From a virus (taxonomy: Duplodnaviria; Heunggongvirae; Uroviricota; Caudoviricetes): 12,850 nucleotides of DNA. Shown here one piece after another: positions 3,009 to 12,850 of this stretch. Every line of letters begins with the position of its first letter. Positions within the stretch are counted from its first letter, which is position 1. Under the pieces are notes generated by a model. That model saw only the letters and a list, made by a program, of their open reading frames with translations. It searched no databases and was not told the DNA's origin. The stretch is from the IMG/VR virus record IMGVR_UViG_2684622618_000017, one strand, 5' to 3'. Position numbers and translations under genes: made by a program.

Positions 3009-3875
3009 TGGCATTCAGAATGAGTGAACAACCACGGACCATAAAAATTTATAATCTGCTGACCGGAACTAATGAATTTATTGGTGAAGGTGACGCATAT
3101 ATTCCGCCTCATACAGGTCTGCCAGCAAACAGTACCTATATTGCACCGCCAGATATTCCGGCTGGCTTCGTGGCTGTTTTCAACAGTGATGAGTCATCGT
3201 GGCATCTCGTTGAAGATCATCGGGGTAAAACGGTTTATGACGTGGCTTCCGGCGACGCGTTATTTATTTCTGAACTCGGCTCATTACCGGAAAATGTTAC
3301 CTGGTTATCGCCGGAAGGGGAGTTTCAGAAGTGGAACGGCACAGCCTGGGTGAAAGATGCAGAAGCAGAAAAACTGTTCCGGATCCGGGAGGCGGAAGAA
3401 ACAAAAAACAGCCTGATGCAGGTAGCCAGTGAGCATATTGCGCCACTTCAGGATGCNNNNNNNNNNNNNNNNNNNNNNNNNNNNNNNNNNNNNNNNNNNN
3501 NNNNNNCATCGGGGTAAAACGGTTTATGACGTGGCTTCCGGCGACGCGTTATTTATTTCTGAACTCGGTCCGTTACCGGAAAATGTTACCTGGTTGTCGC
3601 CGGATGGAGAGTGTCAGAAGTGGAACGGCACATCCTGGGCGAAAGATGCAGAAGCAGAAAAACTGTTTCGGGTACGGGAGGCAGAAGAAACAAAAAACAG
3701 CCTGATGCAGGTAGCCAGTGAGCATATTGCGCCACTTCAGGATGCCGTAGATTTGGATATTGCGACGGAGGAAGAGGCATCGTTACTGGCTGCATGGAAG
3801 ACATATCGGGTATTGTTGAATCGTGTTGATACAACAGTAGCAGCGGATGTTGAGTGGCCAGTCGCCCCACAATAA
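3008..3875 (+). CDS. tfa: Tail fibre assembly protein, lambda Tfa-like; interrupted by N-run 3457-3506 with duplicated flanks
   Basis: [34 protein letters not shown]... and C-terminal ...[27 protein letters not shown] match lambda Tfa from memory. ATG overlaps the stf stop (TAATG at 3006-3010). Confidence 0.85.
3218..3745 (+). repeat. Direct repeat: 3218-3456 and 3507-3745 (239 bp each, roughly 13 mismatches) flanking the gap
   Basis: Both copies start catcggggtaaaacggtttatgacgtggc and end gcgccacttcaggatgc; they differ at scattered positions, some changing amino acids (for example [16 protein letters not shown] versus [16 protein letters not shown]). Confidence 0.85.
3457..3506. other. Run of 50 N (assembly gap or mask) inside tfa
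   Basis: N-run flanked by a 239-bp direct repeat at about 94-95% identity. Confidence 0.9.
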
Positions 3876-5148: not shown

Positions 5149-7961
5149 TCAATCTTTATCGTAAAAACTGCCACGCCTGGCACGGGCGCGCCGTTCCATT
5201 TCTGCCCTGACCATTTCGCCGACCAGTTTCGCCAGTTCGCGGGGATTCTGCGTAACAACGTTATGCAGATGAACATGAATTTCACCGCCAAATCCGGAGG
5301 CAACAGGCTCCCGGTTACGGGAAGTTGCAGGAACTGATGCCACTGGCGATCGTATGGCCTCCACCACCGGGCGGGAGCTGGCCGCAACAACAGGGACCAG
5401 CGCCGGAGGCAGCGGAGCCGGGACCACGGGTGTGATATTAATTGCGGGGGCAGGCTTACTGACCTGCGCAATCTTCCGCTCCTGCCACTCCCCACGAACA
5501 GCAAGTGCGCGGGGCAGGTTCTTAAAGACAATATCGCCGGGGCCAATGCGTTTTTTTGTCTCATCAACCAGCTTACCTGTGTTATCAGCAATTTTGCTGA
5601 GTCTGCGTAGCGTGCCGGTATTGCTGTCTGTGAGAGGTTTGTTGTCTTTGGGTTTATCATCTCCGGTGCCATTGCTATTTCCCGCAGACTTCGGCGGATT
5701 GATTTTCGCAATGTCTCCCTGAAACAGAGCAACCTTGTCCTGAAGAATGGCCGCACGTTGTGCGTCTTCGATTTTCTTGCGCGCCCTTTCCGCTTCATCC
5801 GGAAGCACACCGAGTTTTTCAAGTATCCACGCCAGCGTATCCAGCAACATTTTTGCAGGCGTCAGAACAAGCTGTAACGCACCACCAAGAACGTTACCGA
5901 ATACCTCGCCAGCACTGGTACATTTATCCAGCGTTTCCTTGCTGGACTCCATCGGTGACAGCAGCGATTTAAACCAGTTAAACACCTGGCTGAACCGCTT
6001 CCGATTACGTCAAAAACAGGGCCAAACCGTTCAAAGGTGTCGCGCAACGGGGTCAGCCTTTCCATAATCCCGCTGAACACCCCGGCAAAGAAAGCCCTGA
6101 TAGGATCCCAGTATTTCCAGATAAGAACGGCAGCTCCGGCAAGCGCAGCCACGATAAGACCAACCGGACTGAACAACGCCCCGATAACGCCTCCCAGTAA
6201 AGAAACGGAACCCGTCACCATTCCCCATAGCGCAGGTAACACCCTGACGACATTCATTGACCGGGTAAGAATGTCAAAACCAAGACGCAGGGTGGCCAGC
6301 TTCCCGTAAAGCACCCCAATAACCAGCGACAACGAGCCAATCGTTGCAGTCATTGCCAGCAACGCACCGCCTGCTATCAGTAGCTGGCGCGTCAGTACCG
6401 GATGGGCCTGCGCCAGCGAGGTGATTTTTTCAAGCACCCGCGTGAGCCACTGCGTGACAGAACGCAGCGGACCGTCAACCAGATCACTGATGCGAATACG
6501 AAGACCTTCCCATGCGCTGTCGAGATTTTTCAGGTCCCCATCAAGATTATCAGCCATTACTTTTGCGACGCGATCGGCCTCTCCCCTTGCCCCCTGCAAT
6601 TCTCTGGTCAGTTTTTGCAGCTCTCCTGAACCAGCCGCCGCAACAAGCGTCTGCAAACCAACGAACGCCTCTTCTCCGGCGATGTCCTTGAAGAAGGAGA
6701 CCTGGTCCACCTGTCCGTATTTTTGTGTCGCCTTATAGAGATCAAGCAGCACATCCTCCATCGGGCGCATTTTGCCTCTGGCGTCAGCAACTGACACCCC
6801 CAGCTCTTTCAGTGCATCAGCCGCAGCTTTTGGCGGTGATGCAAGGCGGGACAGACTTGCGCGCATGGCCGTGCCAGCATCGCTTCCGCGAAGACCATTA
6901 TTGGCAAGCATCCCGGCCATGGCCGCCGCTTCTTCAAGACTGATACCAAGTTTTGCGGCAACCGGACCGGTATACTTCATGGTTTCGCCCAGCGCGCGTA
7001 AATCAGTATTGGTCCGGGTAAATGCTGCTGTCAGCGTATCGCCCACCCGGTCCATTTGATCGGCTGTCAGGTTGAACTGTGTGAGGATATTGGAGCCTAT
7101 ATCAGCCGTCTCGCCGAGTTCGACGCCACCTGCCAGCGCCATATTAAGAACACCGGGCAATGCGGCCTGAATGGCCTGCGGAGTAAAACCAGCCATTGCC
7201 AGAAAGCTCTGCCCACTGGCGGCATCACTCGCAGTAAACTGTGTTTCAGCAAGTTTTAACGCCTGCTCACGCAGCGCCTTAAACTGCGGGCTGTTTTTGT
7301 CGATTCGCGTCAGTGCCTGAACGCGGGACATCTCTTTGCCGAACCCGATCGCAGGCTGCAAAAAACGCCCGGCAGCATAGCCGCCCGCCGCTGCCGCACC
7401 AATTGCCAGCGCACCACCTGTTTTCAGTTTTCCCGCGGTTTCCTGCGCGTGCGAATACCGCTCACGCGCCTGCGTTACACGCGCAAGCGCCTGCCGTTCG
7501 CGTTCAAGCTGGTTGTTGTATTGTTCGGTGCGTCTGATGGCCTGCTGAATGGTGTTATCGCTGCCTGTCAGGGAAATGCCGTGGCGTTTCAGCTCTCCGC
7601 CAAGTTCCCTCATTTTCTGAATTTCCCGTGTGCGCGATTCATTCAGGCGTTCAAGCCGGGTGCTTAACTGCTGCATCAGCTTTTGTTGTTTTTCGCTGAG
7701 CACTGTACCCGTGCGTTGTAACTGATTAAGGGCGTTAAGCTGGCGTCGTGCTTTCACGATGCCAGCATCCGCTTTACTGACAGCGTCGCGGGCGCGCTCA
7801 AATGATCGCGCCTGACGCTCGAGATTTTTGATCGCCCCCTGCGTTCGCTGGATGGAGTCACCAAACTGCCCCATCAGGCGGCGTGCGTTTTCGGCAGGTC
7901 GGGTCAGCCTGTCAACGGCGCTGAAAGCGACCCGGATATCAAGAGTCTTCATTGTCTGCAT
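5149..7961 (-). CDS. T: P2-like tail tape measure protein gpT; reading frame disrupted near 5985-6005 (frameshift mutation or sequence error)
   Basis: ORF 5862..7988 (long coiled-coil/Ala-Gly-rich tape-measure-like protein) ends in an implausible Cys/Trp/Arg-rich tail, while the overlapping ORF 5149..5985 in another frame continues with plausible sequence (FNWFKSLLSPMESSKETLDK...GSFYDKD). Start placed at the ATG at 7961 or 7952; the track start at 7988 is GTG. Confidence 0.75.
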
Positions 7962-8522: not shown

Positions 8523-9035
8523 TCAGCCAAGCCCAAGCGCGGAACGGATGCGATCGGGCACAATGTCCTTGCCGTCCTTCCGGTAAATGAAGTTCAGCAG
8601 GTCAATCTCCCACAACGGGCGATCGTTAACACTCAGCTTGTAGTAGGTGTTTTTAATGGCGTAAGTGTGTGATGTGGCTTCGCCCTGTTTGGCTTCCCCC
8701 ATATCAATTTCCGTCACACGTCCGCGCATTTCGACTTCATACAGGTCGCTTTCATCATCGGTGTAGTATTCCCCCGCAAAACGCAGTAGCGTGCCGTCAA
8801 TCGTGCCGCCATACTTCAGGAACAGCTCACGAACTGCGCCCCCCATGACAAAGCTCGCATCAAGCGCGGAGTCGTCCAGGCCGAGGTCAATACTTACCGC
8901 ACCCATCATGCCACCACCCCGGTAGCTGTCGGTTTTGCGCGTCAGTTTAGGCAGGGTGACGGACGTCACCTTACCCACTTCGTTTTCACCATCCACAAAC
9001 AGCGTAAAAAAGCGAAGATGTTTTGGTACAGCCAT
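8523..9035 (-). CDS. FII: P2-like tail tube protein FII
   Basis: MAVPKHLRFFTLFVDGENEVGKVTSVTLPKLTRKTDSYRGGGMMGAVSIDLGLDD... resembles P2 FII; start overlaps the FI stop (TGATG). Confidence 0.85.
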   Translation of the reverse strand: MAVPKHLRFFTLFVDGENEVGKVTSVTLPKLTRKTDSYRGGGMMGAVSIDLGLDDSALDASFVMGGAVRELFLKYGGTIDGTLLRFAGEYYTDDESDLYEVEMRGRVTEIDMGEAKQGEATSHTYAIKNTYYKLSVNDRPLWEIDLLNFIYRKDGKDIVPDRIRSALGLG

Positions 9036-10219
9036 CAGGCACCTCCCAGCACCGCAAATGCGGGACCAAAGAATTCATCAGTAAACGACTGGTAAAGCTC
9101 CATGTCTTCCAGCGGAGGAACGGGCGTATATTTGTAGCGAATACGCACACGCCCCTGACGTAAATTCGTGGTGCTGTTATCCTCGATGTCATACCAGCAC
9201 TCCGCGCCAATCAGTTTCCCGGCAGTAACCAGTGAATCCAGTTTTGCCCTGATGGCACTGATAACATCCTTCACGTTCGCAGGTGTCAGTGGACTGTCGA
9301 TGGTTTCAAACTGCGCTTCCGCAATTGAATCAGCCAGCACCTGTGCGGTTCGGGTATACACCTCAAAGATGTAGGCGTTCGTTTCCGGTGTGCGGTTGCC
9401 CCAGAAGCGGAACCCGTTGCGACGAATAATGGTCGTGATTTCTTTGTTGTTGAGGCTGTTGGCATCACTGTCTTCGGCCTGCAACGACCAGAACACATGC
9501 CTCGACATCCCAAGCACATTTTTAACCGGAACGTTGGACAGCGATTTGTGCCAGCCCTGCTCATGGTCAATGTACGCACGAAGGCCGCACGCATAAGCAG
9601 GCGCGGGGAACGTTTCGTTTTTGCCACTTTTCAGGTTGTAGGCGATGAAGTCAGGCCATAAGAGCATCACCTCACGTTCGTTGAATTTCTGGCGGTAGGT
9701 AATCGCCTCAGCCATCGTGTTACAACCATGACATGTGGCATACACAAACGCGCGCAGTTTACCCGCAATCACGCACAGGGATTTTGTTACCGCCTCCGTG
9801 TCCAGCTCCGGCGCGGCCAGAATACGCGGACGGTATCCGATGCTTTCATCCTGCTCTGCAACAAGCAGCGCATACATCCCCGTATAGCTGCCGTCAGATT
9901 CAGAACCACCGATAACCAGTTGATCCTGCGTCTTACCGCCTTCTTCTTTGTGTTCAGCCACGCGAACGACGATCACTTTTGTGCTCACCTGGTCTGCGAT
10001 AGCCTTAAGCGCACGATAAAGCGTCCCCGTAGTCCCGCATTTTCCCAGCACGTCATTGACGCGGGTCAGCAGTGTGGGCTTGTTCAGCGGGAACAGCTCC
10101 GCGTCCGCATCATCTGCCGTTGCCACGATACCGATAACACTGGAATCAACATCATTAATCGCTGTTACCAGGTCGGTACTTTCCGTAACACGGGCACCAT
10201 GAAAACGAGTTTCACTCAT
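9035..10219 (-). CDS. FI: P2-like contractile tail sheath protein FI
   Basis: 394 aa; motifs ...FPLNKP...GTLYRALKAIADQ...KLRAFVYATCHGC...WPDF...DHEQGWHKSLSNV...GFRFWGNRT...YTRTAQVLADS...YKYTPVPPLEDM match P2 FI from memory. Confidence 0.9.
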   Translation of the reverse strand: MSETRFHGARVTESTDLVTAINDVDSSVIGIVATADDADAELFPLNKPTLLTRVNDVLGKCGTTGTLYRALKAIADQVSTKVIVVRVAEHKEEGGKTQDQLVIGGSESDGSYTGMYALLVAEQDESIGYRPRILAAPELDTEAVTKSLCVIAGKLRAFVYATCHGCNTMAEAITYRQKFNEREVMLLWPDFIAYNLKSGKNETFPAPAYACGLRAYIDHEQGWHKSLSNVPVKNVLGMSRHVFWSLQAEDSDANSLNNKEITTIIRRNGFRFWGNRTPETNAYIFEVYTRTAQVLADSIAEAQFETIDSPLTPANVKDVISAIRAKLDSLVTAGKLIGAECWYDIEDNSTTNLRQGRVRIRYKYTPVPPLEDMELYQSFTDEFFGPAFAVLGGA

Positions 10220-10376
10220 AGCTTCAGCCCCTTGTATCCGTTAAATGATTCGGCAACAATCATCACCCACCACGCGCGTAATCTCACCCCTGCGCCGTTC
10301 TCCCGCCACGGCGACAACAAAAAGCAGTAACCCCCTCCGCACGCACATGCGACCATGCCGCACAGGGAGGGAACAG

Positions 10377-10643
10377 ATGACCGACACCACCATGCAATTG
10401 CTCAGTCAGGGCACAGACCACGTGAAAGTGCCGGATTTTGATATTCTCGCGGAGGGTAAAACGCTGTCAGGCGTGGCAGAGCGCCTGATGAGCCTGTCAC
10501 TGACCGACAACCGGGGATTTGAGGCGGACCAGCTCACCATCACGCTGGATGATGCAGATGGTCAGTTGCAGCTACCGCCACGGGGCGCGCGCCTGACGGT
10601 TCTCATTGGCTGGAAAGGAGAACCGCTGACAGAAAAAGGCACT
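10377..10643 (+). pseudogene. D: 5' fragment (about 89 codons) of P2-like tail protein gpD (Phage_GPD / VgrG-like), truncated by IS30
   Basis: MTDTTMQLLSQGTDHVKVPDFDILAEGKTLSGVAERLMSLSLTDNRGFEADQLTITLDDADGQLQLPPRGARLTVLIGWKG carries the conserved LTDNRGFEADQL motif; SD gggaggg upstream; the ORF runs directly into the IS30 inverted repeat at 10644. Confidence 0.8.
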
Positions 10644-10669
10644 TGTAGATTCAATCTGTCAATGCAACA
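10644..10669. repeat. IS30 terminal inverted repeat (right end)
   Basis: 23 of 26 positions match the reverse complement of 11802-11827. Confidence 0.85.
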
Positions 10670-11765
10670 CCCCTTTCAATTATCTCTTTCGGTGTTTTGA
10701 ACTTCAGTGTCTTTCTCGGTCTGTTGTTTAGCTGAGCAGCAACCAGATCTTCATGTTGAGTATATTGGGCAAGACATGTCTTTTTAGGAAAGTACTGCCG
10801 AATTAGCCCATTTGTGTTCTCATTTGTTCCCCGCTGCCAAGGACTCTGAGGATCGCAGAAGTAAACTTTAACGCCGGTGCTGACAGTAAATTCTAGATGT
10901 CTGGCCAGTTCCATTCCTCTGTCCCATGTCAGTGATTTTCTGAGTTCTGACGGTAAACTCAGGAATTTGTCGGTAAGAGCCTGATTTACTGAGACAGAAT
11001 CTTTGCCCCTGAGTCTGAGGATGATCGTATAACGTGATTTTCGGTCTACAAGTGTGGCTATATGAGAGTTTTTTGTACCTGAGACTAAATCGCCCTCCCA
11101 ATGCCCTAGAGAGCGTCTGNNNNNNNNNNNNNNNNNNNNNNNNNNNNNNNNNNNNNNNNNNNNNNNNNNNNNNNGGCTACGAAAGTACAGCGTTTTATAA
11201 ATTGTCTCAGGTGATATTCGCAGCGTTTTTTGACGTGGTTTTGTTCGCCTTAACCATCCTGATATTTGCTCTGGAGACCATTTCATCTCCAGCTTTTCCA
11301 GAACAAGCTTTCGCAATGGTAAATTTTGATCCAGTAAGCACGGTTTTGGCCTTTTCGCCATTCTGTTGGCTCGGTTATTAGCATCAACAGCTTTGTAATA
11401 GCGTCTGCCCCGATTACGCNNNNNNNNNNNNNNNNNNNNNNNNNNNNNNNNNNNNNNNNNNNNNNNNNNCGATTACGCTGAACTTCACGTGAGATCGTCG
11501 AAGGACTGCGATTCAGCGCAGTAGCTATCGCACGAATGCTCATTTTGGCTGACAAACCAGCTCGTATCTCCTCGCGCTCAGACAGTGTCAGGTGAGCTAC
11601 AGCCCGCTTACGCTCATGGGGTTTTATGCCGCCAGTATCCCTTAACATAGTGAAGATCGTTCCGGGTTTTGAACCCAGGATATTCGCTATTTCACTGAAG
11701 CCTGTTCCGTTCTTCCATAGTTCAAAAACAGAGGCTTTTTCCTCTGCTGTAAATGTTCGTCTCAT
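10651..11765 (-). CDS. insI: IS30 transposase (DDE), interrupted by N-runs 11120-11174 and 11420-11469
   Basis: MRRTFTAEEKASVFELWKNGTGFSEIANILGSKPGTIFTMLRDTGGIKPHERKRAVAHLTLSEREEIRAGLS... and ...HWEGDLVSGTKNSHIATLVDRKSRYTIILRLRGKDSVSVNQALTDKF...QSPWQRGTNENTNGLIRQYFPK match IS30 Tnp from memory. Confidence 0.9.
11120..11174. other. Run of 55 N inside the IS30 transposase gene
   Basis: Roughly 148 nt of coding sequence (about 50 codons between ...YFRS and RRSLGHWEGD...) are replaced by 55 N. Confidence 0.9.
11420..11469. other. Run of 50 N inside the IS30 transposase gene, flanked by a duplicated 9-mer
   Basis: cgattacgc occurs on both sides; the flanking codons (...REVQRNR / RNRGRRYY...) show no coding sequence is actually missing. 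Confidence 0.9.
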
Positions 11766-11801
11766 TCAAAAAAACTCCGCAACCCCATGTTTTCACATAA
11801 C

Positions 11802-11827
11802 TGTTGCGTTGACCAATTGAATCTACA
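11802..11827. repeat. IS30 terminal inverted repeat (left end)
   Basis: Pairs with 10644-10669. Confidence 0.85.
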
Positions 11828-11841
11828 GTGGTCTGTTTTAA

Positions 11842-11937
11842 TATTTCTATTTCTATTTCTATTTCTATTTCTATTTCTATTTCTATTTCTATTTCTATTT
11901 CTATTTCTATTTCTATTTCTATTTCTATTTCTATTTG
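11842..11937. repeat. Perfect hexanucleotide microsatellite (TATTTC)15 plus one degenerate unit
   Basis: 15 consecutive exact tatttc units (11842-11931) then tatttg; begins 14 bp from the IS30 end, in an AT-rich intergenic region upstream of the HNH gene. Confidence 0.95.
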
Positions 11938-12130
11938 TTGTGATTTTTTCTTTAGTTCATGTATTTCGATTTGTTTCTGAATTATCGGGGGTAGTGTCTT
12001 CCCTTTTCCCTGAGGCTTATCATGCAGTTATTTTCGCCATCTTGGTATTGTGGAAATACCGACATCCATAGCTTTGGTGAGCTCTGTTCAGGTGGCCAAA
12101 TTCAGAAAACCATTACGGAGGAAGAAGGCG

Positions 12131-12697
12131 ATGGCTAAACCAGCGCGAAGACGATGTAACCGTAAAAGAGAAGATTTAACTGTTAAAAGGATATTTGAGT
12201 TACTAAGTTTCGATAAATCTACCGGGGTATTTAGATGGAAAGTTCCCACTCAGGGAAGGATAGCATTAAATAGTGTTGCTGGAGCTTTTGATTCCAACGG
12301 TTATTCAATGATCATGATAGATGGGCGTAGATATAAAACTCACGTCTTAGTTTTTTACATAACTCATAATCGTTGGCCTGCTGGTCAAATTGACCACGTT
12401 AATGGAATTAGGACCGACAATAGGCCAGAAAATTTAAGAGAATGCCTGCCAATAGAAAATTCAAGAAATATAAGGATCCGAAAGAATAGCAAATCAGGTT
12501 GCAGAGGGGTTACTTGGCACAAACGACAGAAAAAATGGAATGTTAGGCTAGGATTCCATGGCAAGAGTAAACACTTCGGATGCTTTGATGATCTGGAGTT
12601 AGCGGTACTAGTTGCTGAAGAAGCCCGAGATAAGTATTACGGTGATTTTTCCGGCAACGAAAGGAGCACTTATGCGAATCTATCGAAGGAAATGTAA
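12131..12697 (+). CDS. HNH homing-endonuclease-like protein with C-terminal AP2-type DNA-binding domain
   Basis: HNH signature ...[37 protein letters not shown] and AP2-like [54 protein letters not shown] ggaggaag upstream of the ATG at 12131. About 38% GC. The first 9 residues MAKPARRRC equal the lambda NinG N-terminus as recalled. Confidence 0.75.
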
Positions 12698-12850
12698 ATG
12701 TTGCAATGAATGGTTTATACCAAAATATCAAAATCAATATTGGTGTAATGAGATTTGTGGAACCAAGATAGCACTCGAACGACGAAGTAAAGAACGCGAA
12801 AAAGCGGAAAAGGCAGAAAAGGCAGCAGAGAAGAAACGACGACGAGAGGA
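12672..12850 (+). CDS. ninG: NinG/Rap-like protein, N-terminal part (runs off the window)
   Basis: [59 protein letters not shown] resembles the lambda NinG N-terminal zinc-ribbon region (…[28 protein letters not shown]…) from memory. SD aaggag 5 nt upstream; overlaps the 3' end of the HNH gene. Confidence 0.7.

Follow-up and report, generated by a model that had tools for sequence, protein, structure and literature searches.

In the window (the whole 12,850-nucleotide stretch analysed, an IMG/VR virus record assigned to the Caudoviricetes), the first codons of ninG head a gene for an HNH endonuclease with an AP2-like domain, and ninG itself restarts inside the end of that gene. Likely, this is a free-standing HNH-AP2 homing-type endonuclease gene that stands in frame with the ninG start and has been spread by recombination among lambdoid prophages. 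Most of the endonuclease gene belongs to a foreign AT-rich cassette of 596 bp (12160–12755; this and all features of the pair described below lie on the plus strand), which replaces nt 30–93 of a lambda-type ninG, leaves a full-length ninG behind it, and is nearly invariant in diverged flanks and in several prophage backgrounds.

The interrupted ninG and its borders

Uninterrupted ninF–ninG is found in many lambdoid phages, including lambda, 2B8 and HK544, which served as reference empty alleles. The sequence-only reading had pictured an endonuclease gene inserted at the 5′ end of ninG and pointed to alignment with lambda-type nin regions as the way to its borders and to an uninterrupted allele, and both were indeed located. 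Identity to lambda stops after ninG nt 29 (12159) and resumes at nt 94 (12756); these boundaries were set by local blastn and by eye (global MAFFT against the empty sites scattered the left homology), and the extent of the cassette is also marked by its GC content and by its near-invariance in 53 haplotypes. The impression of an AT-rich segment held as well: GC content falls from 52% in the lambda-type island on the left to 39% in the HNH body and 28% in the following ninG 5′ end, and returns to 49% in the remaining ninG, the same value as in lambda ninG. Owing to these steps across the boundaries, the HNH body and the ninG 5′ end next to it look like one imported AT-rich block.

The comparison with an empty site is clearest for the ETEC1730 prophage, in which the gene order ninB-ninE-ninF-[HNH]-ninG-ninH-ninI-Q is lambda-like apart from the cassette. 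Its flanks match those of lambda by 96.2% on the left (up to ninG nt 29) and 98.8% on the right (from nt 94), with 596 bp in place of 64 bp; hence, genomes that are otherwise nearly the same differ at this site by the presence of the cassette. An empty site with the window's own left flank, sought with a synthetic query of that flank joined to lambda ninG, was found in no complete E. coli genome.

The lambda-type island at the left border (12114–12159) comprises the last bases of ninF, the ninG Shine–Dalgarno sequence (GGAGGA, 12117–12122, 9 nt upstream of the HNH ATG) and ninG codons 1–9 plus 2 nt. Its 42 nt from 12118 to 12159 are 95–98% identical to the ninF-end/ninG-start of lambda, 2B8 and HK544, and the island is now the translation start of the HNH gene. 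The first nine residues of the HNH ORF, MAKPARRRC, had been taken for the exact N-terminus of lambda NinG. This is literally true of HK544, whose NinG starts identically, whereas lambda and 2B8 NinG are annotated with one extra Met, the upstream ATG of which is missing in the window; the kinship of the underlying DNA stands in all three cases. No ATG, GTG or TTG is present in frame between 12134 and the first conserved residues of the HNH protein. The opposite case, an ancestral separate HNH gene without the shared start, was looked for in the form of a differently started copy, and no such copy turned up in any collection searched.

Exactly at the ninG/HNH junction there is an imperfect 20-nt direct repeat (12149–12189), AGACGATGTAACCGTAAAAG then AGAAGATTTAACTGTTAAAAG, with a TRF score of 54. 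Its ungapped match of 15/20 was reached in 2 of 300 shuffles, which is of marginal significance; the repeat may be a trace of the joining event.

At the other end of the HNH gene, a NinG-like frame had been seen to restart at 12672 behind a Shine–Dalgarno sequence embedded in the last HNH codons, and homology confirms this frame as ninG. The sequence AAGGAG (12661–12666, read directly within the 3′ end of the HNH ORF) precedes the ninG ATG by 5 nt, and the two ORFs overlap by 26 nt. The 59 residues of the restarted ORF that fall inside the window match Pfam NinG (PF05766) with 33 bits against a cutoff of 25.4; in identical loci, the full-length gene encodes 200–203 aa (203 aa in strain 3384). 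Its first 28 residues (12672–12755) are diverged: after the split of ninG at nt 29/30, the next 64 nt of the lambda-type gene are replaced by a version matching lambda in 56 of 97 aligned columns (58%). Still, four cysteines are kept there (CKCC...CNEIC versus CKNDEC...CSPEC in lambda). From 12756 onward, the sequence is the lambda-type ninG/rap remainder, identical to 2B8 ninG at 93 of 94 positions and ending at the window edge (12850).

Thus, ninG codons 1–9 exist in two copies, a lambda-type one heading the HNH gene and a diverged one heading ninG. This arrangement bears on the sequence-only proposal that the endonuclease took over the ninG start while ninG acquired a new one: the takeover is borne out by the grafted N-terminus, whereas the second half needs rewording, as the diverged ninG 5′ copy was imported with the nuclease gene.

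The N-terminal cysteine motif of NinG occurs in at least three allele types among lambdoid phages, namely CKNDEC of lambda, CKIC of Stx2 phages and CKCC of the cassette. In these types, the DNA is diverged locally, with the other ninG sequence 90–99% alike (12672–12755 compared with positions 5486–5600 of locus L125 and 433–526 of locus L004).

The HNH-AP2 protein and its relatives

The HNH ORF (12131–12697; ATG at 12131–12133, TAA at 12695–12697) encodes a protein of 188 aa with a chimeric N-terminus and a C-terminal tail running into the restarted ninG. Its HNH_3 (His-Me finger) core covers residues 68–107 (12332–12451) and is detected by Pfam (PF13392) with 42.7 bits against a cutoff of 24.8 (E 4e-11). 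The catalytic residues of the D-H ... N ... N pattern, D88, H89, N101 and N110, are invariant in a family alignment of 12 sequences. Residues 123–171 (12497–12643) resemble an AP2 DNA-binding domain, the Pfam match of which (PF00847, 22.1 bits, E 1.9e-4) is below the curated threshold of 33.3.

In an AlphaFold model built from 12 homologues (mean pLDDT 86), the AP2-like region forms three strands (127–130, 135–142 and 145–152) and a helix (155–173), a block predicted with pLDDT of 90–97. Foldseek superposes this region on AtERF1 (1gcc) with an rmsd of 1.3 Å over 51 columns (TM by target 0.68, probability 1.00) and on WRI1 (7wq5) with 1.5 Å over 53 columns (probability 1.00), the E-values of these two matches being only 0.03–0.1. 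The best PDB match of the whole chain is the homing endonuclease I-HmuI (1u3e), with a probability of 0.98 but an E-value of 7.5e-3 and a TM-score of 0.38; every Foldseek E-value obtained for the HNH protein exceeds 0.001. The division into an HNH and an AP2 domain past MAKPARRRC, as first read from the translation, is retained, with HNH_3 above its cutoff and AP2 below it, and with an AP2-like fold in the model.

Compared with the HNH protein, the other family members start 10–15 residues later and finish about 10 residues earlier. Since its relatives start only at that distance, the N-terminus of the protein is seen as a graft from ninG.

An undamaged ORF is present at 55 of 56 loci, and one copy is frameshifted. 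Distinct substitutions amount to about 12 nonsynonymous and 11 synonymous ones, and rare variants alter invariant residues (N101S, P83T). Two cassette copies are disrupted by IS elements. These are independent insertions of IS3-family (IS1203-like) elements (L009, 4826–6039; L123, 4050–5263), located within the HNH ORF (CP032808) and between HNH and ninG (PK8241). Two candidate variant architectures, P0003 and a PK8241 match of 85% coverage, were rejected, both being IS3-family insertions of this kind. The idea that the protein is an HNH partner of terminase was also rejected, since the location and the subfamily are wrong for it and the gene is situated in the nin operon.

The nearest relatives of the protein are only 41–47% identical and are found in unrelated phages (T5-like ones, a T7-like contig next to endonuclease I, and others), a scattered distribution that would be expected for a mobile gene. 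No copy of 47–98% identity, or with a different N-terminus, was present in a set of 5.8 billion proteins, 50,697 phage records, the GTDB species genomes or IMG/VR; the GTDB species genomes yielded only a 39% match from Planctomycetota. Likewise, searches for the diverged ninG 5′ end without the HNH gene (distant blastn, tblastn, a degenerate DNA pattern in IMG/VR and a protein search) returned nothing other than the cassette. Hence, a donor, be it the nuclease gene with its native N-terminus or the donor ninG, was not found in any collection searched.

The Stx2a phage WGPS4 (O157) carries a second, unrelated HNH_3 endonuclease gene, 38% identical to the present one, just after its dnaB analogue (L125, 542–1153). 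Lambdoid phages of Shiga toxin-producing E. coli (STEC) thus carry more than one homing-type HNH gene.

Genomic setting, spread and rival explanations

Positions 11766–12850 of the window represent DNA of the E. coli O157:H7 type; they show 100% identity to EDL933, to Sakai and to hundreds of further STEC chromosomes. Both ORFs have been annotated in these genomes, as "HNH endonuclease" (WP_001108081.1; Sakai ECs_3504) and "recombination protein NinG" (Sakai ECs_3503). The Sakai copy of the pair resides in the defective lambda-like prophage Sp17, a remnant without the early regulatory region, for which reason the HNH gene of the window, lying in a decayed prophage of the Sp17 type, is probably silent. 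The same pair is also situated 5′ of ninH-Q-stx1 in the Stx1-converting phages SH2026Stx1 and AU6Stx1.

The position of ninF in the window is occupied by a small ORF of 38 aa (12022–12138, MQLFSP...EEEGDG*), a hypothetical protein in SH2026Stx1, of which only the last few codons (EEEGDG*) derive from ninF. The left flank of approximately 180 bp (11937–12118) was found in 519 E. coli genomes and hardly ever apart from the cassette, which itself is present in 538. Farther to the left, between the end of an IS30 element and the 38-aa ORF, there is a perfect hexamer array, (TATTTC) × 15.8 (11842–11936). It varies between strains in a VNTR-like manner, the matched span being 1085 bp in the window, 1055 bp in EDL933 and strain 3384, and 1049 bp in Sakai.

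The full-length IS30 (approximately 10607–11827, considered together with regions 10245–10700 and 9035–10219) truncates a P2-type gpD and links P2-like tail genes to the Sp17-type nin fragment; its transposase ORF (10651–11765, minus strand) is interrupted by N masks only. The HNH gene of Sakai and strain 3384 is accompanied by an incomplete IS30 whose neighbours differ from those in the window. The join of P2-like tail genes, truncated gpD, IS30 and nin genes was found in no complete E. coli genome (best coverage 63%), and it represents either an IS30-mediated rearrangement or an assembly join. Four masked runs of about 50 N (250–299, 3457–3506, 11120–11174 and 11420–11469) lie in the window, none of them touching the HNH/ninG pair.

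Beyond the window, the cassette was detected at 571 places in 538 of the 5426 complete E. coli genomes (no more than three places per genome), always at 95% identity or higher, as well as in 59 IMG/VR contigs; lambda-like ninG is very common, with 3852 genomes matching the query. Among 53 distinct haplotypes, the cassette has two left contexts. In 35 of these haplotypes, including the window, ninF is replaced by other DNA (the hexamer repeat and the 38-aa ORF keeping only the last ninF codons), and in the other 18 the cassette follows an intact ninF, which is of several allele types. Mean pairwise diversity is 0.2–0.6% within 12118–12756, versus 2–8% in the remaining ninG and 9% in ninF. Common polymorphisms resume 3 nt to the left of the ATG and 8 nt to the right of the cassette, and a module switch follows ninG at about 13281 (in window-equivalent coordinates). 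Such low diversity of the cassette in diverged backgrounds is the pattern expected of a recently moved element.

A serious rival to a self-spreading gene is a cassette that originated once and has since been moved passively, by homologous recombination alone. Under this explanation, which we consider unlikely on balance, the module would be the product of one illegitimate recombination event, with a nuclease that is inactive or plays no part; its transfer between lambdoid prophages would be due only to homologous recombination, general or Red-mediated, within the ninG body and the conserved ninF-end/ninG-start. Indeed, the same left fusion junction in all known copies implies that the ninG/HNH fusion arose once, and all copies may descend from one illegitimate joining event and have been moved later by ordinary homologous recombination. 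The high mosaicism of lambdoid nin regions, exemplified by the switch after ninG, fits such a history, and so do the failure to find a donor in the collections searched and a prevalence of approximately 10% despite abundant ninG targets. What speaks against passive carriage is the retention of the catalytic D-H...N...N residues and of an intact HNH ORF in all but one of the loci, along with a diversity that falls to roughly one-tenth right at the edges of the cassette in several backgrounds. Such a step is typical of an element transferred recently and repeatedly, and it would be hard to obtain from neutral hitch-hiking alone.

Quite improbable, in our view, is that the nuclease has been domesticated, either as a weapon of prophage exclusion or competition or as an AP2-type DNA-binding regulator, and cuts or binds competing lambdoid genomes rather than copying itself. 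Precedents are known both for marker exclusion by phage homing endonucleases (PMC2790892, PMC2988022) and for domestication of their DNA-binding domains (PMC10448857), and widespread STEC lineages, Stx1 phages among them, have kept the gene. At the same time, the gene of the window belongs to a decayed prophage, and the intact nuclease motif does not point to a purely regulatory role; exclusion and homing are, moreover, two outcomes of the same cut, which no observation made here separates. Finally, that the shared start is a coincidence of annotation or reading frame and the HNH gene has a start of its own is barely credible: an upstream in-frame GTG at 12050 does lead to a 215-aa call in some gene predictions, but the stretch from 12134 to the first conserved residues holds no in-frame start codon, the 18 intact-ninF haplotypes with entirely different upstream sequence keep the ATG, its 5′ context and MAKPARRRC, and chance cannot account for a DNA match of 42 bp to the ninG start.

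Proposed mechanism, known systems and significance

According to the favoured explanation, i.e., a homing-type gene spread by recombination, an I-HmuI-like HNH_3 plus AP2-type gene would have been joined in frame at codon 9/10 of a lambda-type ninG (rap), and the nuclease would be translated from the ninG ribosome-binding site and ATG in the rightward nin operon. Expression from this operon is suggested by the orientation of the gene, by the borrowed Shine–Dalgarno sequence and ATG, and by the absence of promoter-like sites in a promoter/terminator scan of 11700–12850. The same foreign AT-rich DNA would have brought the diverged ninG 5′ end with its own Shine–Dalgarno sequence; recombination of the latter with the resident ninG at nt 94 would have restored a full-length NinG, the translation of which is predicted to begin 26 nt before the nuclease stop codon.

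The nuclease would then nick or cut in or near the first ~100 nt of an uninterrupted lambda-type ninG in a co-resident lambdoid genome, and repair from the cassette-bearing allele would copy the cassette into the cut genome. The carrier would be immune, its putative site being split and the next 64 nt being only 58% identical. The activity of the nuclease, its target and a nuclease-driven rather than passive spread are inferred here from the known biology of the family, the presence/absence polymorphism and the diversity step. The restriction of the cassette to one-tenth of E. coli genomes, despite the very common lambda-like ninG, and the sub-threshold AP2 score are points against homing. So are the failure to find a donor in the collections searched, the probable silence of the gene in the window, the Foldseek E-values above 0.001, and the rare copies with altered invariant residues, a frameshift or an IS insertion.

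A more specific idea, which is offered tentatively and to which we would give somewhat less than even credence, is that of an active homing element wholly dependent on the ribosome-binding site and start codon of its target and carrying a recoded replacement 5′ end. If so, such start capture would be a compact route by which free-standing endonuclease genes could enter temperate-phage operons of closely packed, translationally coupled genes and cause no polar damage there, and the cassette might drive nin/Q/stx mosaicism in Shiga-toxin phages.

The combination of HNH and AP2 domains is a recognised homing endonuclease architecture (PMC10448857, PMC5714182), and free-standing genes of this class were described by Magnani et al. 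2004, as cited in PMC10448857. Like other phage HNH-AP2 genes, the gene of the cassette encodes an N-terminal HNH_3 followed by a C-terminal AP2-type domain in approximately 150–190 aa, belongs to a family scattered in unrelated phages, and displays presence/absence polymorphism between otherwise near-identical genomes. Unlike them, it has an N-terminus grafted from a host gene and a C-terminus that extends about 12 residues farther into the next gene, and it sits in the nin operon of temperate lambdoid phages, not in a virulent phage; its protein is, as noted, at most 47% identical to any other member (41–47%).

Intronless homing and marker exclusion of the T4 type (SegF, SegG, MobE; PMC2790892, PMC2988022) offer another parallel: a free-standing nuclease gene adjoins or lies inside a conserved gene, the DNA next to it is diverged, which is consistent with a protected or co-converted tract, and the nuclease-free allele is inferred to be cut and then repaired by recombination. 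For the T4 enzymes, cleavage and biased inheritance have been measured, whereas the cassette is known here from sequence; in contrast to them, its nuclease gene is without a translation start of its own.

A precedent for the fusion is gene 31 of the P22-like phage epsilon34, in which a putative HNH homing endonuclease continues the reading frame of the eaE N-terminus (PMC2629481). There, too, a homing-type HNH gene stands in frame with the first codons of a resident early gene of a lambdoid temperate phage, although it is another host gene and another HNH subfamily; a restored host gene was not described for epsilon34, whereas the cassette supplies an imported 5′ end that makes ninG complete again. 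As regards NinG/Rap of lambda (PF05766), the downstream ORF is likewise NinG, approximately 99% lambda/2B8-like from nt 94 and with the four N-terminal cysteines, and it differs in its first 28 residues, which represent the third (CKCC) allele type, and in the new Shine–Dalgarno sequence inside the HNH gene.

Overall, the free-standing HNH-AP2 class, the RefSeq annotation of both genes and the in-frame HNH fusion in epsilon34 are known already, and a description of the ninG fusion or of its duplicated 5′ end was not found in the literature. Conceptually, the cassette adds no novelty to the knowledge of phage homing endonucleases, being a well-resolved, ordinary example. Its value is that it shows, at the level of base pairs, how a nuclease gene of the homing type entered an operon of a temperate phage while the host gene was preserved; the empty site is phage lambda itself, which makes the prediction easily testable in a standard genetic system. 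In Stx1-converting phages, the cassette is located just upstream of Q and stx1; if the nuclease is active, it could promote the exchange of the toxin-regulating region between co-resident STEC prophages.
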